Assembly (NCBI GenBank): GCA_021203905.1
Contig: JAJQAG010000004.1
Coordinates: 129,939 to 193,938, forward strand
Direction of reading: 5' to 3'
From: Coprobacillus sp.
Lineage (GTDB): Bacteria > Bacillota_I > Bacilli_A > RFN20 > CAG-826
Length of the DNA stretch: 64,000 bases
The translations under genes and the position numbers were made by a program. Position 1 is the stretch's first letter; each line of letters starts with the position of its first letter. The notes under the pieces are model-generated. The model saw only the letters and a list, made by a program, of their open reading frames with translations. It made no database searches and was not told the DNA's origin. Of this stretch, positions 3,180 to 30,030 are shown piece after piece.

Positions 3180-3464
3180 TTAGTCTGCGACCACACAGAC
3201 ACATTTCTTTCTTCTTCCCATTCTCTGGTAGTGAACAGTGCCATTAACTAGAGCGAAGATGGTGTCATCTCCACCTTTCTTGGTATTGGTCCCTGGATAA
3301 ATCTTTGTTCCTCTTTGACGGTAAATAATTGATCCAGCATGGCACCATTGCCCATCGGCGACTTTAGCACCTAAACGACGGCCCGCGCTATCACGGCCGT
3401 TCTTGGTACTCGAGGCACCTTTATGGGATGCGAATAATTGTATATCTAATTTAAACATCATCAT
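3180..3464 (-). CDS. rpmA: 50S ribosomal protein L27 with N-terminal propeptide
   Basis: 94 aa. [26 protein letters not shown] matches the Firmicute L27 pro-sequence and its Prp cleavage site. Confidence 0.95.
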
Positions 3465-3480
3465 CGGTTACCACCTTTCT

Positions 3481-3804
3481 TTAATCTATGGTCACCACTT
3501 CACTGACGGAGACATATTGGGGATAACTTTCTTTAATTGTCTTTAGAGAAGTTAACATTGTCTCGATGACCACTTTGTCATGCTCGCTTGGTTCTTCTTT
3601 GGCCACCAAGCTCGCATATCCACTTTCGAGTTGGAGAGAGAATTTATTGCTGTCTTGGAGAGAATTGAATCCTCCAGTGACGATACTTGAGACAGCGGCA
3701 CATATGAGATCTTCACCTTTTTCAGCGCTTCCACTATGACCAGTGACGAGAAGTGTTACCGGAGTGGTGCTATGATTTGAATAGGTGTAGACAACTTTAA
3801 TCAT
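3481..3804 (-). CDS. prp: ribosomal-processing cysteine protease Prp (YsxB family)
   Basis: 107 aa. The conserved [18 protein letters not shown] catalytic His/Cys region is present. The gene lies between rplU and rpmA as in Bacillus, and its start overlaps the rplU stop as ATGA. Confidence 0.85.
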
Positions 3805-4115
3805 TTGGTGTTGATACTTTCAATGACTAAGCATGTGTAGGGCTGACGATGGCCCATGGTTTTTCTCTCATTGGTTTTTGCTCGATAATGGAAAACGCGA
3901 ATTTTTCTTTCTTTGCCCTGTTTTTCCACTGTAGCGGTGACACTAGCGCCACTCACATAGGGTTTCCCAACAGAGTTTTTCTTACCGTCAGAGATGAATA
4001 GCACTTTATCGAGAGTGACACTTGAACCCTCTTCAGCGGGAAGTTTTTCAACATAGACATGTTGACCAACCTCGACACGGACTTGCTTTCCACCCGTTTC
4101 AATGATTGCGTACAT
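3801..4115 (-). CDS. rplU: 50S ribosomal protein L21
   Basis: 104 aa, beginning [17 protein letters not shown] Shine-Dalgarno lies 7 nt upstream. Confidence 0.95.
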
Positions 4116-4262
4116 TACTTGGCCTCCTTATTTTAAATTCACTAAGGACTCGCTATGAAGGTCGAGAAGAATCTCAGTTAGTAAACCTTTTCTAGGCGGT
4201 TGTAGCTAGTGAGGCTAAACAACGCTTGATACTATAACATAGTTATAATATGCCCGCAAGAA
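4116..4262 (-). promoter_or_regulatory. rplU promoter (TTGCGG-17-TGtTATAGT) plus a leader of about 125 nt, possible L21 leader
   Basis: On the minus strand an extended -10 TGTTATAGT sits with 17-nt spacing to a TTGCGG -35. A long structured 5' UTR precedes the L21 Shine-Dalgarno. The L21 autoregulatory leader of Firmicutes is established knowledge, but the fold was not verified here. Confidence 0.35.
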
Positions 4263-4276
4263 GTTTTTTAAGAGGG

Positions 4277-4972
4277 TTAGAGTTTTTTATAGATGATGTC
4301 TTTATTATCCGCAAACGAATAATAACCTTGACCAGAGATGATAATGTGATCGAGAAATTCAATTCCGACTTTTGCACTATCCTCTAAAAGAAGGAAGGTG
4401 AAATTGATATCATAGTCACTCGGTGTGACCACCTTTTGACCAGAGGGGTGATTATGAATAATGTAATACTTTTTCCCTCCTCTCTTTAGTATTTCCCCTA
4501 AAATTTCATTTTCATTCACCGACATATCACTACTGGTTCCTTGGTAGAGATCGCTCTCATGAATGATCCTTCCACTTTTAGAGATGGAGACGACGATAAG
4601 GTGTTCTTGTCCTTCGTCTCGAAATAGGCTTTGGTATTTGTTAATGAGGTATTCTTTGATATCCCCAATCGAGGCACACTCTTGAATCTGATAGTTGTAT
4701 CTTTTAGCGATTTCTATGACCGCGGCAATCTTGGTGGCATTGATCTTATTAATCCCTTCATGGGCCACTAAATCATCCATGGTCATTTCTCCTACTTTTA
4801 CTAGTCCTCCTTCCATTAAAATAGATTGACTTATCTCAATCGCGGACATCTTCTTAGTTCCACTAGAGATAATCAGAGCGACGAGTTCTGTATCAGAGAG
4901 GGCGCTAATCCCATAACGCATGGCTTTTTCTCTCGGTCTGAGTAAAGGTGGGATGTTTTTTATCTTTCCCAT
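4277..4972 (-). CDS. radC: RadC-like JAB/MPN domain protein (UPF0758)
   Basis: HNHPSG JAMM motif and an N-terminal HhH segment LSDTELVALI. The start is set at the ATG at 4972 (MGKIKNIPPLLRPRE), which overlaps the stop of the upstream small ORF as TAATG. The track start at 4993 is an alternative. Confidence 0.85.
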   Translation of the reverse strand: MGKIKNIPPLLRPREKAMRYGISALSDTELVALIISSGTKKMSAIEISQSILMEGGLVKVGEMTMDDLVAHEGINKINATKIAAVIEIAKRYNYQIQECASIGDIKEYLINKYQSLFRDEGQEHLIVVSISKSGRIIHESDLYQGTSSDMSVNENEILGEILKRGGKKYYIIHNHPSGQKVVTPSDYDINFTFLLLEDSAKVGIEFLDHIIISGQGYYSFADNKDIIYKKL

Positions 4973-5154
4973 TAAGCCCACTGAAATTCCCATCCACCAG
5001 GGATGGTGACCTCTCCACTGTTACTGGTGGCAATACGACAGACAAGAGCGGCAACTACCGCTGCGGCAAGGATTGCCATTACTGCGGTAAGAGTTATGGC
5101 TTCACCAACGACCTCTTGACGCATCTCGTCATCATTCATTTTTGTTAGTGTCAT
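4972..5154 (-). CDS. small membrane protein of 60 aa
   Basis: The central stretch ITLTAVMAILAAAVVAALV is hydrophobic. A strong GGAGG Shine-Dalgarno lies 7 nt upstream. The gene is translationally coupled to radC and is preceded by a 24-nt motif shared with the gene at 20633. Confidence 0.45.
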   Translation of the reverse strand: MTLTKMNDDEMRQEVVGEAITLTAVMAILAAAVVAALVCRIATSNSGEVTIPGGWEFQWA

Positions 5155-5161
5155 TCTTTTT

Positions 5162-5186
5162 CCTCCTTTGTCTATATATTCATTAG
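5162..5186 (-). repeat. conserved leader motif copy A: CTAATGAATATATAGACAAAGGAGG on the coding strand
   Basis: Near-identical to positions 21092-21120 (one T indel). It ends in the Shine-Dalgarno of the downstream gene. Confidence 0.5.
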
Positions 5187-5236
5187 TAAGAGATTTCTCT
5201 CTTTTGGGAGAAAAATGTTAAAGAAAAGACACAAAA

Positions 5237-5262
5237 GAAAAAATCACCGAAGTGATTCTCTC
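5237..5262 (-). terminator. intrinsic terminator after valS
   Basis: The minus strand reads AATCACttcgGTGATT followed by TTTTTT. Confidence 0.6.
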
Positions 5263-5285
5263 TTTTATATACAAAGTATATAAAC

Positions 5286-7865
5286 TTACTTTAACTTAGA
5301 GAGCAAGGCCTTGAGATTCTCTTCGTGTTTCTTCTTCTTCGCTTGCTCAAGCTCGACCTTTTCTTTTGGGGCTTTAGAGACAAAACTTGGATTAGAGAGT
5401 AAGCTCTCACATCTATTGATCTCACTCTTAAGATATTCTATCTCTTTTAAGATGGCGTCTTTGTCAGTCTCTTCTTCTACAATTAAGAGATCAAAACTAG
5501 AGAATGTATAGAGAGAACCTTCTTTCTTAGAGATGTTTTTATCATTAATTGTGAGCTCATCTGTAAAGGTAAATCTCTTAAATAAAGGAGTAATATCATA
5601 ACTATATAGACCTTTATAGTTGAGAGAGACGACTAACCCTTGATTGGGAGAGATTTTTCTCTCAATTTTATAGTTTCTCACGACCTTAATAGCACTCACT
5701 AAAGAATCTATGAGTTCATCACTCTCTTTATTAACCCACTTTGCGTGATACTTAGGATAGGTTTCTAAGTTCACACTTTCTCGGTGAGAAGGAAGTGATA
5801 AATAGATCTCTTCACTGATAAAAGGAGTAAAAGGAGAGAGCATTAAAACAATATTCTTAAGGCAATAATAGAGGACTTGATAAGTAACCTCTCTCTCCTC
5901 ACTTTGAAGAGAAACTTTACTCATCTCGATATATGTAGAGCAGAAATCATCGTAGACAAAGTCATAGAGAAGAGAACTCGCTTGATTAAAGTTATAGTGT
6001 TCCATATGGGTGGTGACCTTCTTTGTCACCTCTTCCATCTTATTAATAATCCATTGATTAAGAGGAGATAAGTCTAAACGAGAGAGATTCTTTACTGGTT
6101 TAAAGCCTTCTGGTAAGACACTTAAGACATAGCGTGCGGAATTATAGACCTTATTTAAGTAATTAGAGGCCGCAACGACCTTATTTTCACTATATCTCAT
6201 GTCAAGACCTGCTGCGGTATTCGTGGTAAGGAAATATCGAAGAGCATCCGCACCATATTTATCGATAACCACAAGGGGATCCACTCCATTACCTAAGGTT
6301 TTTGACATCTTTCTTCCTAATTCATCACGACAGAGACCATGAATGATGACATTACGGAAAGGAATCTGGTTATTAAAATGGAGAGATTGGACCATCATAC
6401 GACTGACCCAGAAAAAGATTATGTCATATCCTGTAATAAGAGCGGAGGTTGGGAAATAACGCTGAAATAATGGATCTGTAGTATCAGGCCAGTTTAAAGT
6501 GGCAAAGGGCCAAAGAGCACTTGAGAACCAAGTATCTAAGACATCACTATCTTGTTCGTAGTTATTAATATCTTTTGGGGCCTCTTCACTAACGATGACA
6601 GAGCCATCAATCTTTGAATAATACGCTGGGATACGATGTCCCCACCTAAGTTGACGAGAGATACACCAATCTTCGATATTATCCATCCAGCGGATAAGAG
6701 TATTATTAAATCTTTGTGGGATAAAATTCACTTTCCCTTTACCCTTTTGTGTCTCAATGACTTTTTGGGCAAGAGGTTTCATCTTCACAAACCATTGTTT
6801 GGAAATCATTGGTTCCACAACAGCGCCAGAGCGCTCACTATGTCCCACAGAGTGAGTGATGGTTTCTTCTTTGATAAAATCATCATTATCTATTAGTTCT
6901 TTTAATAAAGCTTCACGACAATCATATCTATCTAGGCCTTGATATTTCCCGCAGTGCTCATTCATCTTCCCATCTAGCGTCATAATCACAGGTTTCTCGA
7001 GATGATATTTCTCCCCAATAAGAAAGTCATTAGGATCATGAGCGGGTGTACATTTCATCACTCCCGTTCCAAAACTAACATCGACATATTCATCACAAAT
7101 TACTTCAATTACTTCTTTATTTGCGGGATTTATCACTTTTTTACCGATATATTTTGTATATCTTTTATCTTTAGGATTCACTACAAGACAGACATCTCCA
7201 AACATGGTCTCGGGTCTTGTTGTGGCCACTGTGAGATATTCATCACTATCCACTAAACGATACTTAAAGTAATACATCTTTCCTAGATCATCGCTATGGA
7301 TAACTTCAACATTACTTAAAGCGGTCATCTGCACTGGATCCCAGTTTATGATCCTCTGTCCTTGATAGATAAGTCCTTCCTTATACATTTGGACAAAGAC
7401 TTTCTTTACCGCTTTTTGCATCCCCTCATCAAGGGTGAATCTTTCCTTAGAATAATCAAGGCTTAATCCAAACTTCTTCCACTGCTCATGAATGCTAGAT
7501 GCATACTCATCTTTCCATTGCCAAGCGTAGGTTAGGAATTCATCACGACTTAAATCATGAGGATTAATCCCACTATTTCTGAGTTTCTCACTGACTTTAG
7601 CTTCAGTAGCAATACCCGCATGATCCATTCCTGGAAGGAATAAGACATCATATCCTTTCATTCTTTTATAGCGGCAGATAATATCTTGTATGGTCGTGTC
7701 CCAAGCATGTCCTAAATGGAGTTTTCCGGTCACATTAGGGGGAGGAATAACGATGGAATATGGTTTCTTAGTGAGATCACCACAAGTAAAATAACCTTTC
7801 TGACACCAGGTTTCATACTTCCCTTCTTCCACTTTTTTTGGATCGTATCTTTTATCCATAACCAC
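5286..7865 (-). CDS. valS: valyl-tRNA synthetase
   Basis: 859 aa. HIGH-type motif region (GKLHLGHAW) and KMSKTLGN. A C-terminal coiled coil is present. Confidence 0.97.
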   Translation of the reverse strand: MVMDKRYDPKKVEEGKYETWCQKGYFTCGDLTKKPYSIVIPPPNVTGKLHLGHAWDTTIQDIICRYKRMKGYDVLFLPGMDHAGIATEAKVSEKLRNSGINPHDLSRDEFLTYAWQWKDEYASSIHEQWKKFGLSLDYSKERFTLDEGMQKAVKKVFVQMYKEGLIYQGQRIINWDPVQMTALSNVEVIHSDDLGKMYYFKYRLVDSDEYLTVATTRPETMFGDVCLVVNPKDKRYTKYIGKKVINPANKEVIEVICDEYVDVSFGTGVMKCTPAHDPNDFLIGEKYHLEKPVIMTLDGKMNEHCGKYQGLDRYDCREALLKELIDNDDFIKEETITHSVGHSERSGAVVEPMISKQWFVKMKPLAQKVIETQKGKGKVNFIPQRFNNTLIRWMDNIEDWCISRQLRWGHRIPAYYSKIDGSVIVSEEAPKDINNYEQDSDVLDTWFSSALWPFATLNWPDTTDPLFQRYFPTSALITGYDIIFFWVSRMMVQSLHFNNQIPFRNVIIHGLCRDELGRKMSKTLGNGVDPLVVIDKYGADALRYFLTTNTAAGLDMRYSENKVVAASNYLNKVYNSARYVLSVLPEGFKPVKNLSRLDLSPLNQWIINKMEEVTKKVTTHMEHYNFNQASSLLYDFVYDDFCSTYIEMSKVSLQSEEREVTYQVLYYCLKNIVLMLSPFTPFISEEIYLSLPSHRESVNLETYPKYHAKWVNKESDELIDSLVSAIKVVRNYKIERKISPNQGLVVSLNYKGLYSYDITPLFKRFTFTDELTINDKNISKKEGSLYTFSSFDLLIVEEETDKDAILKEIEYLKSEINRCESLLSNPSFVSKAPKEKVELEQAKKKKHEENLKALLSKLK

Positions 7866-14608: not shown

Positions 14609-14685
14609 TGGCGCCCTCGAGGCGACTCGAACGCCTGACCCACAGCTTAGAAGGCTGTTGCTCTATCCAACTGAGCTACGAGGGC
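14609..14685 (-). tRNA. tRNA-Arg (anticodon TCT)
   Basis: The reverse complement folds as a cloverleaf: acceptor GCCCTCG/CGAGGGC, T-loop TTCGAGT, anticodon loop CTTCTAA. U33 and A37 are present. The discriminator is G and CCA is encoded. Confidence 0.9.
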
Positions 14686-22063: not shown

Positions 22064-22913
22064 GAGAGGTCTTCTCCTCTATGGTTTCTTTAGTTGGGGT
22101 CTCTACGGGGGCGACTACAACGTCCTCAACCTTTTCTTCTTCTTTTGGATTTGTGGATTCCTCTCCATGTATTAAAGCGTCCATCTGAGCTTGATGAAGC
22201 GCCACTTCGCTCTTAGCTTTCTCTTCTTTCTCTTTCTTACTTTGTTTTCCGTCCCAGACAAAGAGCCAAATGATAAGCATAATCACTCCGACGACTAAGC
22301 AGGCATCCGCCCAGTTAAAAGTGGGGAACTCATAATTTCCAAAGTGGAAAGCAATCCAATCAATCACTCCACGAGTGCTCCCACTGACACCTAAATAGGA
22401 GGAAGTATAGAAGGCTCGATCAATCAGGTTTCCAATACAGCCCGCAAGAATAATCATGCAACAAGCTCTCGCAAATTTGGGAATCTTTTTATATTTGACT
22501 GCAAAAACAGTAATGATTACTACTGCGGCAATAACACTAATACCAACAAAAACAATGATATTTGCAGTGTAATTACCAGTATCTATTCCAAAAGCCATCC
22601 CATCATTGATGACATATTTTACCCCAAGGAAGTTATTAATAAGCCAGATCTCTTCGCCTTCACTGCTATAGTAGTAAGGAACATAGTCCTTAATTAAAGT
22701 TTTGGTGACGATATCGATAATAAACATCAAAACGAAGAGCCAAATAAAAGACTCGAAGATCCACTTCCAAGTAGCATCCCATTTAGGATGTTTCTTGACA
22801 GTAGCGGTTACTTCTTGTTCGGAAACCTGTGCGCTCTCTACGGGTGTGGTTTCAATAGGAGTTTCTTCCTTGACTTTCTTTGGCATTACTTTTTCTCCAT
22901 GAGATGATGACAT
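22044..22913 (-). CDS. lspA: lipoprotein signal peptidase II with long charged N- and C-terminal extensions
   Basis: Core motifs NNFLGVKYVINDGMAFGI and IDRA..GxVxDWI are present. The start is ambiguous: a TTG at 22922, an ATG at 22913, or an ATG at 22886 that overlaps the ileS TAA stop as TAATG. Confidence 0.8.
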   Translation of the reverse strand: MSSSHGEKVMPKKVKEETPIETTPVESAQVSEQEVTATVKKHPKWDATWKWIFESFIWLFVLMFIIDIVTKTLIKDYVPYYYSSEGEEIWLINNFLGVKYVINDGMAFGIDTGNYTANIIVFVGISVIAAVVIITVFAVKYKKIPKFARACCMIILAGCIGNLIDRAFYTSSYLGVSGSTRGVIDWIAFHFGNYEFPTFNWADACLVVGVIMLIIWLFVWDGKQSKKEKEEKAKSEVALHQAQMDALIHGEESTNPKEEEKVEDVVVAPVETPTKETIEEKTSRGKSKS

Positions 22914-25621
22914 CTTGGGCAAAGATATGAATCTTTCTCTACCTCTATGGCGTCATAATCATAGTTCCAACATCTCTCACAATAGTGTCCACTATGACGA
23001 TGGACATCAATGATTGAGTGGTTATATTCATCTCCTTTAATTTCTTCTTTATAGATATTAAATCCGGAGACGACAAAGAGATTCTTTAAATCTTCTTTGT
23101 TTATTTTATCAAATAAGTGGGAAATATTTACATCTTTTATGAAAATATTTACTTCCGCTTCTTGACTAGAACCAATAGTTCCTTTTTCTCTCTCCACTTC
23201 AAGTGCCTTTAAGACTTCACTTCTTAAAGCCTTAAAGAGTTCGTATTCCAAGAGAAGAGCGTCATCCACTTCCCCCTCTTTTGGAAAGTCGAGCAATTGG
23301 ACATATTCCTCTCTTTTCCCAGGAAGATTCTTATTAAATTCGTCCATGGTGAAAGGAAGAATAGGATTAAGTAATCTTAAGATAGATTCTGAGACGAGAT
23401 ACATCACTGATTGCATCTGGTTCCTTCTCTTTGAATCTTTTTCATCACAATATAAAGTGTCTTTAGCAATATCTAGATAGAAGGAAGATAAATCACTAGA
23501 AAGGAAAGTCGTAATATAACTCATTCCGTTCGCGTAGTTATATTCATCAAAACTCTTTCTCACTTCTCTCTCGACATAGTGTAAACGATTAAGGATATAG
23601 GTATCCACAAGGGTAAAATCACTAGTAGTATTCTTGGGATCAAAGTCCACAAGATTCCACGACATAAACTTTAAAGTATTACGGATTTTACGATAGACTT
23701 CACTTACTTGTTTAATGATATCTTCACTCATTCTCACATCGCTTTGATAGTCGATTGTCCCGCAGTAAAGACGAACGACATCGCTACCATACATATCTAT
23801 CACTTTAAGTGGGTCAGTACCATTACCTTTAGACTTAGACATCTTCTCCCATTTTTCATCCATGATAAACCCATGGGTGACCACGGCATCATAGGGGGCG
23901 TGACCATAGACTGCGGTCGAGATAATAAGGGAAGAATTAAACCATCCACGATACTGATCGCTCCCTTCTAAGTAGAGATTTGCGGGGAAATTTAAACCTT
24001 TATCGACGATATTGTACATAAAGGAAGAACCACTATCAAACCACACATCCATGATATCGACTTCCTTAGTAAATATCCCGTGGGGAGAATGAGAATTTTT
24101 ATAGCCTTTAGGGAGTAAATCTATCGGGTCTTTTTCATACCATACATTTGACCCATTTTCTCTCACTAATTTAATAATATTATCAAAGACTTCTTTCTCA
24201 ATAATGGGAGTCTTATCTTCACAGTAAATAATGGGGATAGGAACACCCCACGCTCTCTGACGAGAGATACACCAATCGCTACGATCTTTAATCATATTGA
24301 CCATTCTTACTTCTCCCCAACTTGGGTACCATTTTACCTTATGAATTTCATTTAGAAGCTTCTCTCTAATGGGTTCAATTGAGCAGAACCATTGATCCGT
24401 CGCTCTAAAGATTAAAGGTTTATTAGTTCGCCAATCATGAGGATAGGAGTGAATAAAGGTTTCATGTTTTAAAAGATGTTGATTCTTCGCGAGAATATCA
24501 AGAACGACATCATTTCCTTTCTCGTAGAATAAACCACTTAACTCTGCTCCGACACTCTCATCAAAATATCCCTTCTCATCCACTGGGCAATAAGGTTCAA
24601 TCCCATATTTTTGACAGACAATAAAATCATCCACACCATGTCCACCAGCGGTATGGACAAATCCCGTTCCAGCGTCATCGGTAACATGAGTTCCAAGAAT
24701 AATGGGAACTACTCTCTCATAGAAAGGATGAGAACATTTAACAAGTTCCACTTCTTTTCCCTTAAATTCCCGAATGAGTTTCACATCTTTAAGATTAAGT
24801 TCATTCACTAATTTATCTTTTAGAGAAGTAAGGAAGGCTAAGTTTCCTCTGTTTGTACAATACACTCCATAAGTAAAATCTGGATGAGCGGATATCGCCA
24901 TATTTGCAGGTAAGGTCCATGGGGTGGTGGTCCAAATAACCACTTGATCACCTTTGTTTAAGATGCCATTTCCTTCAATGACATCAAAGGCCACATAGAT
25001 AGAGTGGCTTTCAACATCTTTATATTCAATCTCTGCTTCTGCTAAAGCGCTTTCACTACTCGGGGACCAATAGACAGGCTTAAGGCCTTTATAGATAAGA
25101 CCATCAAGCGCCATCTTGGCGAAACACTCTAGCTGGCTAGCTTCGTATTCTTTTAAAAGGGTGAGATAAGGTTTCTTAAAATCTCCCACGACTCCTAAAC
25201 GTTGGATTTCTTCTTTTTGTCTTTCCACTTGCTCCAAAGCATAGTCTTTACATTGGTCACGGAACTGGACAATAGGTGTGGTCTTTCGATTGATTCCCAT
25301 CGCTGTGACTTTATTTTCAATAGGGAGACCATGGGTATCCCAACCAAAGACAAAGGGTGTTTGATAACCACACATATTCTTATAACGGATGGTGATATCT
25401 TTAAGCACTCGATTAAGCATATGCCCACAGTGCATATCTCCGTTAGCGTAGGGCGGTCCATCATGGAGAGTGTACTCTGGACACTCTTTTCTTTTCTCCA
25501 TCATTAAAGAGTAGAGATCCTCATCTAACCACTTCTTGATAAGAACTGGTTCTTTAGAAGGGAGGTTTCCTCTCATCTCAAAATTACTTTTATTCATCAG
25601 TAAGGTGTCTTTATAATCCAT
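22886..25621 (-). CDS. ileS: isoleucyl-tRNA synthetase
   Basis: 911 aa. HMGH-type motif region, KMSKSKGN, and a C-terminal Zn finger CERC...CPRC. Confidence 0.97.
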   Translation of the reverse strand: MDYKDTLLMNKSNFEMRGNLPSKEPVLIKKWLDEDLYSLMMEKRKECPEYTLHDGPPYANGDMHCGHMLNRVLKDITIRYKNMCGYQTPFVFGWDTHGLPIENKVTAMGINRKTTPIVQFRDQCKDYALEQVERQKEEIQRLGVVGDFKKPYLTLLKEYEASQLECFAKMALDGLIYKGLKPVYWSPSSESALAEAEIEYKDVESHSIYVAFDVIEGNGILNKGDQVVIWTTTPWTLPANMAISAHPDFTYGVYCTNRGNLAFLTSLKDKLVNELNLKDVKLIREFKGKEVELVKCSHPFYERVVPIILGTHVTDDAGTGFVHTAGGHGVDDFIVCQKYGIEPYCPVDEKGYFDESVGAELSGLFYEKGNDVVLDILAKNQHLLKHETFIHSYPHDWRTNKPLIFRATDQWFCSIEPIREKLLNEIHKVKWYPSWGEVRMVNMIKDRSDWCISRQRAWGVPIPIIYCEDKTPIIEKEVFDNIIKLVRENGSNVWYEKDPIDLLPKGYKNSHSPHGIFTKEVDIMDVWFDSGSSFMYNIVDKGLNFPANLYLEGSDQYRGWFNSSLIISTAVYGHAPYDAVVTHGFIMDEKWEKMSKSKGNGTDPLKVIDMYGSDVVRLYCGTIDYQSDVRMSEDIIKQVSEVYRKIRNTLKFMSWNLVDFDPKNTTSDFTLVDTYILNRLHYVEREVRKSFDEYNYANGMSYITTFLSSDLSSFYLDIAKDTLYCDEKDSKRRNQMQSVMYLVSESILRLLNPILPFTMDEFNKNLPGKREEYVQLLDFPKEGEVDDALLLEYELFKALRSEVLKALEVEREKGTIGSSQEAEVNIFIKDVNISHLFDKINKEDLKNLFVVSGFNIYKEEIKGDEYNHSIIDVHRHSGHYCERCWNYDYDAIEVEKDSYLCPRCHHLMEKK

Positions 25622-25876
25622 ACTCTCTCCTTAAAAAGAAATAAAAAGCATCCATATCTAAGGACGCTTTCGCGCGGTACCACCTTAGTTCTAGAGAACC
25701 CTCTCTAGCGCTTCATTAGCCTAATAACGTTTAGAAAACGGAGACTTACTCTTAGTTCAGTACTCATAAGAAGGAGTGATATCTATACATCTCTTTCTTG
25801 TTGACCTTTCCATCCACTGCCAACTCGCTGTAAGGGGGTGATATATAAACTTGTCTCCTAATTGCTTACTAACAAG
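25622..25876 (-). promoter_or_regulatory. T-box leader of ileS
   Basis: On the minus strand the T-box sequence CTAAGGTGGTACCGCGCGAAAGCGTCC (plus 25671-25688) is followed by a terminator hairpin and TTTTTATTTC, then the ileS Shine-Dalgarno. Confidence 0.8.
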
Positions 25877-25911: not shown

Positions 25912-25990
25912 AGGAAGTTTATAAATAGTATTAGACAGACTATGCTCTAATATCGATAAGTATGTTCCACTTTTAAGCAACTATTTTGCA

Positions 25991-26392
25991 GTGGCAACCC
26001 CAGATTACAGAACTTATCAAGATATGAACGATAATGTAATCCGTTACAACACTTACAGGAATCGATGGATTGGTGCGTATCTACAAGAACGGGGAATCAA
26101 AGTCATTCCAACCATTGGGTGGGGTAGTAAGCAAACCTTTAAGTATGCCTTTTCCGGGGTGGAAAAAGGAAGTGTCGTGATTGTCTCCACAATTGGTTGC
26201 CAAAAAGTTAAGAAAGATTTTATAAGGGGGTATAACAAGATGCGAAAAGTTATTAAACCATCGATAGTTATCGTTTATGGGAAACTAATCCCAGGAATAA
26301 AAGGCAAAATCATAAATTTTGCTTATGAAGACGCATTTTTAGGACATGATATATCCAATCATATCGAAAATATCAAAAAGGGGGTAAAATAA
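25991..26392 (+). CDS. hypothetical protein, island gene 1, possibly a fragment
   Basis: 133 codons, Lys/Ile/Gly-rich. It is open only from a GTG with no recognisable Shine-Dalgarno. The in-frame upstream region is open back to 25925 with no ATG. Confidence 0.4.
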   Translation: MATPDYRTYQDMNDNVIRYNTYRNRWIGAYLQERGIKVIPTIGWGSKQTFKYAFSGVEKGSVVIVSTIGCQKVKKDFIRGYNKMRKVIKPSIVIVYGKLIPGIKGKIINFAYEDAFLGHDISNHIENIKKGVK

Positions 26393-26394
26393 AC

Positions 26395-26805
26395 ATGGGT
26401 GGACGAGGAGCATTTGCCGATTCTAACAATCAAAATTTCACCTTTGTTGAAGGTGGCCAAACTTACCGAACAATTAAAAAATATAAAGGGTTTGAAACAA
26501 TCGAAAAAATTGATCAAACCAAAAATACTGCTATCCCTTTTTATTCCCATTCTGGAAGCAACATATATGTAGTAGTCCAACAGAATAAGATTAAAAATAT
26601 AACAGTGTACGGAGAAAACCACAATGTAGTTACAAGTATTGATTTTTACAAAAAGCACCACGGAGTGATTCCCCATACGCATCCTCATGGGATTCATACA
26701 AATGATGGACCCGGAATCCCACCAACAGAAGAAGAATGGAAGTTGATACGATACATCAAAAAGAAAACGAGGTTAAAATGTTTCAATGATCAAAGCACCA
26801 ATTAA
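26395..26805 (+). CDS. hypothetical protein with His-rich motif HTHPHGIH, island gene 2
   Basis: 136 aa. The ATG lies 2 nt after the gene-1 stop, with an AAGGGGG Shine-Dalgarno. Confidence 0.55.
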   Translation: MGGRGAFADSNNQNFTFVEGGQTYRTIKKYKGFETIEKIDQTKNTAIPFYSHSGSNIYVVVQQNKIKNITVYGENHNVVTSIDFYKKHHGVIPHTHPHGIHTNDGPGIPPTEEEWKLIRYIKKKTRLKCFNDQSTN

Positions 26806-27283
26806 TTATTATGGCGAATGCAAATCAATTAATATCTTCTATGACTACTACTATCCACTAAAGAGTGTTGAAGATTTTTGCAATGTCTGCATGGTTTTTG
26901 AGTACGATGGTGTCCTCTATCTTCTAGATGAGGAGATGGTGGATCCAGACATATTTCCTAACAATAAAAATGACGGATGCGATTACTCCATGAGAAGAAT
27001 CTACCGCTTGAAGTTACAAGACGACGGAACTTACCAAAGAACTTTACTTGCTACATATAGAACACTAGCAAAAGTCCTCACGGAATGGAAAGTAGACGGT
27101 GTCCCCTTAGAATCCATGTTTGGAATGGACAATATGAGAGTAATCGAAATGTATTCTCGAGAGTATCGAGAAGAAAACACACTAAACTTTAAAGAATATG
27201 CCGAGAGGTATAAGAGAAATAATGAACCAAACGACAAAAAGACCAAAAAACACAAAAAGAAATGGTGGGAAAAATTGCGATGA
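26786..27283 (+). CDS. hypothetical protein, island gene 3, paralogue of gene 4
   Basis: 165 aa with a Lys-rich tail. It overlaps gene 2 by 20 nt. Confidence 0.6.
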   Translation: MIKAPINYYGECKSINIFYDYYYPLKSVEDFCNVCMVFEYDGVLYLLDEEMVDPDIFPNNKNDGCDYSMRRIYRLKLQDDGTYQRTLLATYRTLAKVLTEWKVDGVPLESMFGMDNMRVIEMYSREYREENTLNFKEYAERYKRNNEPNDKKTKKHKKKWWEKLR

Positions 27284-27663
27284 CAGACAATCACTTTGAT
27301 TCACTAGATGAATTCTACAATTTATACTATGAACGCCGCCCTTATCCTGGACCCGATTACATGGATATGGATTTCTATTACAAAGGAAAGTTTTATTGGT
27401 ACATGGAAGAAGGCATCATGAGAGAAGATTTTCCAAATTTATACCACGATGGGGGAGATTATGCCGTTAGAATTGCTTATGAATTGATACCAGAAGATGG
27501 GAAGCCGATGTCGAAAGAAAAGTACGATTTTACAAAGTGCAAGTGTATATTATTAGGAAAATATCGCTTGATGGAGGATATTCTCAATGATTGGATAATC
27601 GATGGGAAGCCATTTAAAGATGTCCTCATTGATAAAGAGACACATATTTACGATATTAGATAG
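27280..27663 (+). CDS. hypothetical protein, island gene 4, paralogue of gene 3
   Basis: The start is reassigned to the ATG at 27280 (MTDNHFD), which overlaps the gene-3 TGA as ATGA and is preceded by a GGTGGGA Shine-Dalgarno. It shares the motifs Y.G..Y...EE, DFPN and DG.DY..R..Y.L with gene 3. Confidence 0.6.
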   Translation: MTDNHFDSLDEFYNLYYERRPYPGPDYMDMDFYYKGKFYWYMEEGIMREDFPNLYHDGGDYAVRIAYELIPEDGKPMSKEKYDFTKCKCILLGKYRLMEDILNDWIIDGKPFKDVLIDKETHIYDIR

Positions 27664-27671
27664 TTCCTATT

Positions 27672-27709
27672 AAAAAAAAAGGTGGCTGGGCCACCTTTTA
27701 TTTATTGTT
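27672..27709. terminator. bidirectional intrinsic terminator
   Basis: A9 followed by GGTGGCtggGCCACC followed by TTTTATTTATT. It serves both the plus-strand island and ftsZ on the minus strand. Confidence 0.65.
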
Positions 27710-28808
27710 TCAAGAAAGAGGGGAGAATGTTAGATTTATCTAACTCCTCCTTCTCTTCACTCTTTTCTGGCTCACTCTCTTCAATGGGAGCCTCCTCAAT
27801 AGTAGGACGAGTAATTGGATCCACAAGCAAGGGTTGAGAGAAATCCATCTCTTGTTCAAAGTCCGCGGCAATGACACTGACGATGATTTCATCATCGAGT
27901 TGATCATTAATGCTCACTCCAAACTTGATATCAATATCTCTTCCCGCGGCTTCGATAAGATATCTCACCGTATCTTGAGCATCAAAGAGAGAGACATTAG
28001 TGCCACAAGTCACAGAGACAATGGCGCGTCTTGCTCCAGCAACACTGGCTTCTAGTAAAGGAGAGGAGATGGCGCTTAAAGCGGCGTCTTTTGCCCGATT
28101 AGGTCCTTTTCCATAACCACTACCAATGAGTCCCACTCCAGAATGTTGAAGGGTATTTCTCACATCCGCAAAATCGAGGTTGATAACTGCGGGGAGTAAG
28201 ATGAGATTCACCACTGTCTTCACAGATTGCGATAAGACTTTATCGCTTTCCGCAAAAGCACTAGGAATAGGAATTGTTCCCACATTTCTAAGGAGTTGAT
28301 CGTTAGAGACGACAATAATTGAGTCGACATTTTCTTTAAGTTTATTTAAGCCATCGATGGAGTTATTGATCCTTGTCTGTCCCTCAAAGGTAAAAGGACG
28401 AGTGACAATGGCCACGACTAGCGCACCTGCATCTTTCGCGATACGAGCGACCACCGGAGCGGCGCCTGTACCAGTGCCACCACCCATACCGGCAGCGATA
28501 AAGACAAGATCCGCACCATTAACCATCTCTCTAATGGCGTCAGCGCTCTCTTCTGCGGCTTTTTCTCCGACTTCAGGAACACCCCCGGCTCCTAAGCCTC
28601 CCGTCGTGTTCTCTCCTAAAACTGTCCTATTTGATGCTTTAGAAGAGGAGAGAGCTTGTTTATCAGTATTCAAAACATAGAAGGTGACATTAGCAATTTC
28701 ATCATCAATCATACGATTGACAGCATTGCTTCCTGCTCCCCCCACACCAATGACGACAATTTTGCATGCGGGTTCAAAATTATCTAAGTCATAGTTCCCA
28801 CTAGCCAT
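27702..28808 (-). CDS. ftsZ: cell division GTPase FtsZ
   Basis: GGGTGTG tubulin signature. The start is set at MASGNYD (ATG at 28808) with a GGAGG Shine-Dalgarno. The track ORF extends 22 codons upstream into ftsA. Confidence 0.95.
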   Translation of the reverse strand: MASGNYDLDNFEPACKIVVIGVGGAGSNAVNRMIDDEIANVTFYVLNTDKQALSSSKASNRTVLGENTTGGLGAGGVPEVGEKAAEESADAIREMVNGADLVFIAAGMGGGTGTGAAPVVARIAKDAGALVVAIVTRPFTFEGQTRINNSIDGLNKLKENVDSIIVVSNDQLLRNVGTIPIPSAFAESDKVLSQSVKTVVNLILLPAVINLDFADVRNTLQHSGVGLIGSGYGKGPNRAKDAALSAISSPLLEASVAGARRAIVSVTCGTNVSLFDAQDTVRYLIEAAGRDIDIKFGVSINDQLDDEIIVSVIAADFEQEMDFSQPLLVDPITRPTIEEAPIEESEPEKSEEKEELDKSNILPSFLKQ

Positions 28809-30030
28809 TGTTACGACCTCCTTTAGAAGATGTACGTGTTCCAGTAGGATTGGCTGCTGGACGAGTATCTTCATAAATATTCTTATATTTAGAGTTTGTT
28901 AAAACTGCTCCTAAGACATTGTAGAGATTGGGTTTTCTCGCTCCTAAACTCGTGGGTACGGGAGTGGTGATATTCTTTGAACTCACTATCGGAGAGAGAT
29001 AGGAGACGAGTCCATTAAGACGGGCTCCACCCCCGATTAAGACCATCGGGAGAGAGCGGTAAAAGTCTTTCTCTTCCTCTTCATAACCCGCGAGTAAGAC
29101 ATCTATCGTCGTATTGAGATGATTGATGAAGGTTTCAAGTTCTTCTTTGACAAGATCATTTAGTTCAGAAGCATAACAGACCTTCCCCTCTTCGCTTGTA
29201 TAGATGGGAACTTGGAAACGCATTTGCTTCTTATCATAGCCATAGAGACATTTAAGCTCTTCGGCTTTTTCCATAGAAACACTAAGATGATGAGCGATAT
29301 GTCTCGTAATACTATTCCCACCCCAGGCAAACTGTTGAGAGGAATATAGCACTCCATCGCCAATAAGAGAAACAGTAGTCATCTCTCCACCGATATCCAC
29401 TAAGAAGTAAGCACTAGGGGTTGTGGGTTGAGTAGCGAGTAGTTCGCAAGCGGCAAAAGGTGCCACTACCATTCGAGAGATAGATAATCCCGCTTCAAGA
29501 ACCGCTCTACGATAACTATCAATAAGAGGGATGGGGAGAGTGTGAAGTTTCGCTCGCATGGTTAGTCCCGTAGAAACTAAACCAATAGGAGGGGTTATAT
29601 ACTCCTTCCCATCATCGACAATGAAGGTGTCAGGGATAATATCCACACAATCATTATTGAGTTCCGCCGGAAATTTATCTTTTCTAATCAAAGCGTATAA
29701 GTTCTTAATATCTATCGTATCGATTCTTCCTTCTGGAGAGACAATCGTCGTGAACTTATCATTGTTAAAGACCACAAGACCATTAGGAGGAAGCACTAAG
29801 ATAACCTCTTGAACGAGGACCGAGATCTTTGCATCAGGATCTTCAAACTTGGTTAAAGAACTAATCTCTTTGACAAGTTTGGCTTTATCAACGATGGAAC
29901 CATTCTCGATGACACCAGAAAGAGGTTTCTCCTTCACATAGATAACATACACTTGTCCTTCATTTTCAAAACCTTCAAGAAGTTTGAGAGATGAATCCGA
30001 AATTTCAAGAACAAAGACAGGTTTTTTCAT
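28801..30030 (-). CDS. ftsA: cell division protein FtsA
   Basis: 409 aa. Actin-like ATPase fold with an SHS2 insert. It lies immediately upstream of ftsZ. Confidence 0.88.
   Translation of the reverse strand: MKKPVFVLEISDSSLKLLEGFENEGQVYVIYVKEKPLSGVIENGSIVDKAKLVKEISSLTKFEDPDAKISVLVQEVILVLPPNGLVVFNNDKFTTIVSPEGRIDTIDIKNLYALIRKDKFPAELNNDCVDIIPDTFIVDDGKEYITPPIGLVSTGLTMRAKLHTLPIPLIDSYRRAVLEAGLSISRMVVAPFAACELLATQPTTPSAYFLVDIGGEMTTVSLIGDGVLYSSQQFAWGGNSITRHIAHHLSVSMEKAEELKCLYGYDKKQMRFQVPIYTSEEGKVCYASELNDLVKEELETFINHLNTTIDVLLAGYEEEEKDFYRSLPMVLIGGGARLNGLVSYLSPIVSSKNITTPVPTSLGARKPNLYNVLGAVLTNSKYKNIYEDTRPAANPTGTRTSSKGGRNNG

Follow-up and report, generated by a model that had tools for sequence, protein, structure and literature searches.

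A 64,000-nucleotide (nt) stretch of a Coprobacillus sp. genome (assembly GCA_021203905.1, contig JAJQAG010000004.1, positions 129,939 to 193,938; hereafter the window) carries, between ileS and ftsZ, an island of four open reading frames (ORFs), g1 to g4, the last two of which encode tandem paralogous proteins. With moderate confidence, we regard g3 and g4 as a pair of paralogous antidotes, of immunity or antitoxin type, to the product of g2, a putative toxin resembling Ntox24, and the island as a degraded version of a mobile, conserved and probably inducible cassette of DUF4417, g2 and antidote genes. This interpretation is favoured because g2 and a g3/g4-type partner are coupled at about 90 loci, the two products are complementary in charge, partners outlast damaged g2 genes, and in one locus (L040) a g2-partner pair has been duplicated as a unit. 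The original prediction, made from the letters of the window, had proposed an immunity or antitoxin array: the gene context makes immunity or antitoxin function the best-supported reading of the pair, while the term array is not borne out, since just two copies are present.

The g3/g4 family

BLASTP comparison of g3 with g4 (46.6 bits, E 4e-12) aligns 109 residues with 29% identity and 46% positives, and recovers both of the alignment blocks on which the original prediction had based its tandem paralogy. Its description of the pair as a duplication with strong divergence is likewise correct, both products matching a shared family profile. Because this profile includes independent members from other bacteria, the similarity represents homology rather than chance. 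Both ORFs are present where they had been predicted (Table 1). For g4, the ATG at 27280 is the probable conserved start: it creates an ATGA overlap with the g3 stop, and the orthologue in the sister species (P0001) begins at the equivalent methionine; in the AlphaFold model of the longer form, residues 1-8 are disordered.

Judged by sequence similarity, g4 is the canonical member of the pair, closest to the single-copy partners of other bacteria, and g3 the divergent one. The single-copy partners P0006, P0008 and P0007 are matched by g4 with E values from 4e-15 to 2e-8, and more weakly by g3 (3e-6 to 0.02). The core of g3 (residues 1-120) is acidic, with an isoelectric point (pI) of 4.6, and is followed by a Lys-rich, lineage-specific C-terminal tail.

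The family is rare. Only seven members were returned when 1.84 billion representative proteins were searched exhaustively with a profile, and word-indexed homologue searches retrieved the sister species only; the family was reached by combining the exhaustive profile search with loci anchored on g2. Neither g3 nor g4 matches any Pfam family at E values up to 1, and none of ten family members matched the Imm or SUKH families at E values up to 5. The immunity families considered as candidates (SUKH, Imm50, Imm53 and others) are thus unmatched, whether by sequence or by fold. Searches of NCBIfam and PADLOC with g3 and g4 returned nothing, and PHROGs gave chance-level matches only. Furthermore, no match to helix-turn-helix (HTH), ribbon-helix-helix or AbrB domains was found in g3, g4 or their relatives, so that the DNA-binding domain expected of a type II antitoxin is missing; regulation of the operon appears to be left to separate HTH and peptidase genes rather than to the partner.

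The AlphaFold model of g4 is confident, with a predicted local distance difference test score (pLDDT) of 84.5 and a predicted template modelling score (pTM) of 0.80, and predicts an alpha+beta layout of one helix, four strands, two helices and a final strand. Foldseek comparison of this model with the PDB and BFVD revealed no neighbour at E ≤0.001, and hence no fold shared with known immunity families. Sequence searches of the PDB with profiles of the partner, g2 and DUF4417 families yielded chance-level matches only. The g3/g4 family is a previously undescribed group of small acidic proteins.

A conserved cassette with one-sided decay

Loci anchored on g2 were collected from genomes (10) and metagenomes (80), and all ORFs in these 90 loci were tagged with profiles. 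The sources include Lachnospiraceae, Selenomonadaceae, Ruminococcus and related metagenome-assembled genomes, with human-gut, rumen, pika and other metagenomes represented. In 88 of the 90 loci a family member comes after g2, whether g2 is a reading frame or a fragment. In 87, g2 was called as an ORF and the partner is the next gene in each; in 85 of these 87 its start precedes the g2 stop by 4 nt, the exceptions being L058, with a 31-nt gap, and L040, where both of the duplicated pairs do overlap. In L014, g2 is detectable by tblastn as a fragment only, and L113 shows the partner alone on a contig too short to reveal what lies upstream. Look-ups anchored on the partner agreed with this, g2 preceding each of P0006, P0007 and P0008, with P0007 standing in a cassette of DUF4417, a 124-amino acid (aa) g2 and P0007 itself, and P0006 and P0008 lying behind g2 C-termini at contig edges.

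DUF4417 lies directly upstream of g2 nearly everywhere, the exceptions being L013, L054 and L055, where upstream sequence is present and DUF4417 was undetected, and L038, a short contig. Profiles also identified genes for an XRE-type HTH protein and an ImmA-like peptidase directly upstream, in the same orientation, in approximately 40 of the 90 loci, while several further loci have one of the two regulators or end too near the cassette to tell. The upstream regulators of L009 match the PADLOC models capH (1.1e-5) and capP (4.2e-11); CapH/CapP pairs are described, in the abstracts of the work on them, as controlling many immune operons. Some cassettes (L006, L009 and L010) adjoin relaxase, primase or serine-recombinase genes, and some others lie directly between housekeeping genes.

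One locus, L005, comes from a GenBank entry labelled as an unverified phage ('Bacteriophage sp.', MT837061). It resembles a bacterial chromosomal fragment, no phage structural genes being seen, and its cassette lies between pstS-like and pstC/pstA/pstB-like genes (names read from the ORF translations only).

The g2 proteins are stand-alone polypeptides of 124-136 aa (typically ~129) that start with MG[GS]RGAF, and nine residues are invariant among 12 members: Y58, Y72, I82, D83, P93, H94, H96, H101 and E114. Zhang et al. (2012, PMC3482391) described Ntox24 as an all-beta domain with conserved Y, H and H, and predicted metal-independent RNase activity for it; the invariant Tyr and His residues of g2 may answer to this description, a possible resemblance of g2 to a toxin. 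The window g2 matches the Ntox24 profile (PF15529) with 18.6 bits and an E value of 0.0024, below the Pfam gathering cut-off of 24 bits, and sub-threshold matches recur in seven of the 12 members (best E 2.2e-4). The remote similarity is therefore suggestive, membership being below threshold. Window g2 also matches PHROG 9479 (E 1.3e-7), and no g2 homologue was found in the plasmid collection searched. Delivery of Ntox24 has been reported with phage MuF proteins among other routes, and Ntox24 also occurs in novel type II toxin-antitoxin (TA) systems with uncharacterised antitoxins (PMC3482391).

The relation between g2 and its partner has several properties of a toxin-antidote pair. The median pI of g2 is 9.10 (36 distinct sequences) and that of the partners 4.49 (46 distinct sequences). 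As in type II TA systems, the two are small, adjacent, co-oriented and translationally coupled genes; in the window, this coupling takes the form of a 20-nt overlap of the g2 3' end by the g3 start, and of the ATGA overlap between g3 and g4. Moreover, a damaged g2 accompanies an intact partner in five lineages; this one-sidedness describes the loci examined, as the reverse situation, a damaged partner, was not systematically screened. In L032-L036, two intact family members stand behind a g2 that is reduced to a 3' relic (z 8.5 against g2 in L032, reached by 0 of 500 shuffles), and in L013 and L014 a 5'-truncated g2 precedes an intact partner. In the sister strains L002 (~70-80) and L003 (~2164-2175), two independent assemblies, a 1-nt deletion in a GGG run at codon 2 (ATGGGTGG to ATGGTGG) inactivates g2, leaving g3 and g4 intact and identical.

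L040, from a pika gut metagenome (3301-5555), has a single DUF4417 gene followed by g2a, partner a, g2b and partner b in tandem. Identity is 82% between the two g2 copies, most of whose differences fall in the C-terminal half with the His motif, and 74% between the partners. The pair has been duplicated as a whole and has co-diverged. Within the cassette the partner evolves fastest, with a mean p-distance of 0.49 as opposed to 0.29 for g2 and 0.42 for DUF4417. The mirror-tree correlation of g2 and partner (r 0.91) does not discriminate between readings, because it is no higher than the correlations with DUF4417 (0.89-0.91 over the three genes, 0.89 with DUF4417).

The damaged-g2 contigs L032-L036 represent a second locus of the Coprobacillus lineage (L032 2973-3934), which adjoins an rsmE-type methyltransferase gene and a TM2-domain gene. 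It was found in sister-project assemblies, and also in the sequencing run from which the sister-strain contig L003 derives. The order of the partners is reversed relative to the window, the g4-like P0004 coming first and the g3-like P0005 second. Two partners behind a single g2 occur only in this lineage, at both of its loci; all other loci have one partner per cassette, except for the duplicated pair of L040. It is plausible that a second g2 was lost from a double pair like that of L040, or that a new g2-g3 unit was captured upstream of an older partner; shuffle-tested protein and DNA comparisons found no sequence trace of either event. Two candidate traces were rejected: derivation of the Lys-rich g3 tail from a duplicated g2 3' end was not significant in protein comparison (z 0.28 and -1.2), and the DNA score of a 23-nt direct repeat upstream of both starts was reached by 126 of 1000 shuffles.

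From these features we infer the following as the most likely scheme. The g3/g4 family would be the obligate downstream partner of g2, a protein that would be toxic inside the cell; the partner would be produced by coupled translation from the g2 mRNA, and would bind g2 one-to-one, neutralising it in the manner of an immunity protein or a type II antitoxin. The full cassette, as seen in relatives, consists of an HTH repressor and an ImmA/CapP-like peptidase, followed by DUF4417, g2 and the partner, and may act as a stress- or phage-inducible addiction or abortive-infection module on mobile elements. The second Coprobacillus partner is probably a leftover (orphan) immunity gene, or a back-up immunity for a second g2 variant.

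The island in the window

The four plus-strand genes of the island are wedged between the minus-strand genes ileS and ftsZ. The GC and AT skews are locally reversed across them and G+C content is slightly lower, in agreement with the island label that the original prediction had attached to them. In a sister species with ~84-87% DNA identity to the window (L001), the island occupies the same slot in complete form, with a 294-aa HTH/CI-like gene, a full-length DUF4417 of 221 aa, g2, g3 and g4 in this order. Approximately 1.45 kb of this is missing from the window, which takes away the gene of the HTH/CI-like regulator and the initial ~88 DUF4417 codons: by blastn, the window up to 25916 corresponds to L001 up to 5968, and the window from 25931 to L001 from 7419. 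The remaining fragment, g1, matches DUF4417 (Pfam PF14386; E 3.9e-33) over profile positions 69-176 of 183, and also PHROG 8680 and PHROG 940. The HTH and M78/ImmA-type pair expected upstream of a CapH/CapP-controlled operon is thus not found in the window, where these genes are deleted.

Table 1. Positions of the island genes, their neighbours and related phage regions (window coordinates unless a phage or viral contig is named).
Feature	Position	Strand	Description
ileS	22886-25621	-	left neighbour of the island
Deletion junction	25916-25931	.	blastn, window versus L001
g1	25991-26392	+	5'-truncated DUF4417 fragment, 133 codons
g2	26395-26805	+	136 aa, pI 9.4, MGGRGAF start; putative Ntox24-like toxin
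g3	26786-27283	+	165 aa; divergent family member
g4	27280-27663 (from 27262 if longer start)	+	127 aa (133 aa in the longer form), pI 4.7
Intrinsic-terminator hairpin	27677-27699	.	bidirectional; 10-bp stem, detected on both strands
ftsZ	27702-28874	-	right neighbour, convergent with g4
Phage DUF4417-GGRG region, L004	4091-5396		Roseburia phage Jekyll
Phage DUF4417-GGRG region, L028	3986-6201		IMG/VR contig
Phage DUF4417-GGRG region, L029	3179-5396		IMG/VR contig
Phage DUF4417-GGRG region, L030	4385-6104		IMG/VR contig
Phage DUF4417-GGRG region, L031	4118-7637		IMG/VR contig

The window copy is a decaying cassette, its regulator and the 5' part of DUF4417 deleted and g2, g3 and g4 intact, and the ileS-ftsZ island as a whole is a degraded mobile cassette. 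Its right end is marked by the hairpin that separates g4 from ftsZ, and its left junction lies ~45 nt past the T-box leader of ileS. No convincing flanking repeats or integration scars were found around it. The T-box leader itself (25657-25872, minus strand) scored 84.4 bits, just below the Rfam gathering score of 93, and was for this reason overlooked by the default scan. The Rfam scan of the window also detected an L21 ribosomal leader (4135-4211, minus strand) and a tRNA gene (14612-14685, minus strand), both unrelated to the island.

Relative to L001, g3 and g4 are under purifying selection: the ratios of non-synonymous to synonymous substitution (dN/dS) are 0.087 for g3 and 0.045 for g4 (g1, 0.056), values similar to those obtained in the same comparison for ileS (0.042), ftsA (0.068) and also ftsZ. 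Both copies are kept in three sister assemblies and on a fourth contig. It is very improbable that the island genes are functionless remnants of a decayed mobile element, their duplication being devoid of present function: although the window has lost its regulator, the promoter region and the beginning of DUF4417, and no convincing promoter was found, the ORFs of g2, g3 and g4 are undamaged and have plausible ribosome-binding sites, and dN/dS relative to the sister species is 0.045-0.087.

Alternative roles and known systems

Several observations weigh against the antidote interpretation. None of the 12 g2 members scanned reaches the Ntox24 cut-off of Pfam, and the AlphaFold model of g2, built on a shallow alignment, is unreliable (pLDDT 46.5; seven strands and one helix). 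A promoter search recognised no convincing promoter in the window copy after the deletion. Between the window and the sister species (26395-26805 versus L001 7882-8292), g2 shows 67% aa identity and is more diverged than g3 and g4 (81-85%), the reverse of the family-wide trend; synonymous sites of g2 are saturated between the two Coprobacillus species, while g1, g3 and g4 stand at 81-85% aa identity, which suggests recombination or diversifying change in g2. Furthermore, the near-constant DUF4417 companion is unexplained by a simple two-gene TA model. Finally, phages carry DUF4417 and g2-like genes directly upstream of terminase with no partner gene, from which it follows that g2-like proteins are either tolerated there or non-toxic in their role.

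This phage arrangement was seen in Roseburia phage Jekyll and in the IMG/VR contigs L028-L031. Behind the DUF4417 gene, whose product sometimes has a ParB-like N-terminal extension, come between one and three small proteins that are unrelated to one another and all begin with MGGRG[AS], a pattern suggestive of a common N-terminal tag carried by polymorphic payloads. The phage-type g2 proteins are only 25-30% identical to the cellular ones, and scanning viral sequences with the profile of cellular g2 gave no match. In Jekyll, a 90-aa protein (L004 4717-4989) starts with MVVNLQFF directly followed by GGRGG. The L27/Prp cleavage motif has been given as MLxx(D/N)LQ(F/L)F'A... (PMC9405229), and cleavage at the L27/Prp-type motif of the Jekyll protein would expose a GGRG N-terminus, as would removal of the initiator Met from g2-like proteins. 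A gene table for S. pyogenes phages (PMC8066415) shows DUF4417 at this position as well, together with a small unassigned protein that was not compared with g2. DUF4417 has also been reported as a phage-enriched fusion partner of ParB-CTPase folds that is otherwise uncharacterised (bioRxiv 10.1101/2025.10.10.680097).

Such a neighbourhood gives some weight to a first alternative, which we regard as possible though unlikely, namely that g3 and g4 are accessory subunits, joined with DUF4417 and g2 in a single machine or pathway of phage origin. The machine might process, modify or target GGRG proteins to capsids, or serve packaging or DNA modification, with the partner acting as chaperone, adaptor or specificity factor. 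DUF4417 and g2 are adjacent in cells and phages alike, in phages directly upstream of terminase and with up to three unrelated MGGRG proteins; all three cassette genes co-evolve tightly (r 0.89-0.91); and the absence of the partner from phages would mean that no antidote is needed there. However, strong basic/acidic complementarity is more typical of toxin-antidote pairs, g2 has been lost while the partner was kept, where a subunit would be expected to go with its enzyme, and the g2-partner pair has been duplicated as a unit.

In view of the phage arrangement, g2 may belong among the payloads of a broader system linked to DUF4417. It is conceivable, if improbable, that DUF4417 and the GGRG proteins constitute an undescribed polymorphic effector system of Firmicute phages, from which cellular elements captured g2 together with inhibitors. 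DUF4417 would then recognise, process or traffic payloads via the GGRG tag, for example into capsids, a destination suggested because the genes adjoin terminase genes. The captured g2-inhibitor set, under DNA-damage-responsive control, would be a defence or addiction module, in which the tandem g3 and g4 would supply inhibitors of two specificities for an arms race between phage and host.

It is also decidedly improbable, in our estimation, that g3 and g4 protect not against the resident g2 but against g2-like, GGRG-headed effectors of incoming phages, delivered from the capsid, with two diverged copies widening the range of effectors covered. The location of g2-like genes in phage late regions, the listing of Ntox24 with MuF phage-head delivery (PMC3482391), the persistence of partners where the resident g2 is dead, and the divergence of the second copy (29% identity) would all agree with such a role. 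Nevertheless, identity between phage-type and cellular g2 is as low as noted above, encapsidation of g2-like proteins is unsupported, and almost every locus shows tight coupling of the partner to a resident g2.

Should g3 and g4 indeed be antidotes to g2, they would define a new antitoxin or immunity family, with a fold unmatched in the PDB or BFVD, and g2 a new stand-alone branch of Ntox24-like toxins. The conserved three-gene core of DUF4417, toxin and antidote in gut and rumen Firmicutes, often under CapH/CapP-like control, would provide a first functional handle on DUF4417, a phage-enriched domain of no known role, and would point to a short GGRG N-terminal tag on variable phage proteins encoded beside packaging genes. 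What this means in practice for the present genome is modest: the two small paralogues of its island are probably retained antidotes.

Polymorphic toxin loci of the contact-dependent growth inhibition (CDI)/Rhs type hold orphan toxin-immunity modules and encode large secreted toxins with N-terminal trafficking domains. The g2 cassettes resemble these orphan modules in that an immunity-like gene stands behind the toxin end and 3' fragments of g2 are followed by intact partners of their own (L032, L013 and L014), as well as in the diverged tandem pairs of L040 and in a partner that evolves faster than g2. Unlike CDI/Rhs toxins, g2 is a whole protein of ~129 aa that lacks a large N-terminal secretion or trafficking domain, the sole shared 'address' being the short MG[GS]RG N-terminus, and no secretion system lies near the cassette.

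With CapH/CapP or ImmR/ImmA-type operons, approximately 40 of the 90 cassettes share an XRE-type HTH gene and an ImmA/CapP-like metallopeptidase gene upstream. The effector genes, in contrast, namely DUF4417, g2 and the partner, are not in PADLOC, and the regulator has been lost from the window, while the sister species has a single 294-aa HTH/CI-like protein.

The Ntox24 systems, with Imm50 or Imm53 or as stand-alone Ntox24 TA pairs (PMC3482391), are resembled in the small, basic, predicted beta-rich g2 with conserved Tyr and His, in its recurrent weak Ntox24 matches, in the small partner gene immediately downstream, and in the phage links (MuF). They differ in that g2 is sub-threshold in every member, that the g3/g4 partners match neither Imm50, Imm53 nor any other Pfam family, and that an extra conserved DUF4417 gene precedes g2.

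The MuF polymorphic toxins of temperate phages (Jamet et al. 2017, PMC5576092) are variable payloads that, in the lysogen, have an immunity gene behind them. The phage payloads described here are unlike these in being separate small proteins, encoded after DUF4417 and upstream of terminase, instead of MuF C-terminal domains, and the phage g2-like copies have no partner gene. Both, however, comprise variable, toxin-like payloads encoded in the morphogenesis or late regions of Firmicute phages, and the immunity gene found downstream in MuF lysogens has its likeness in the partner that follows g2 in cells.

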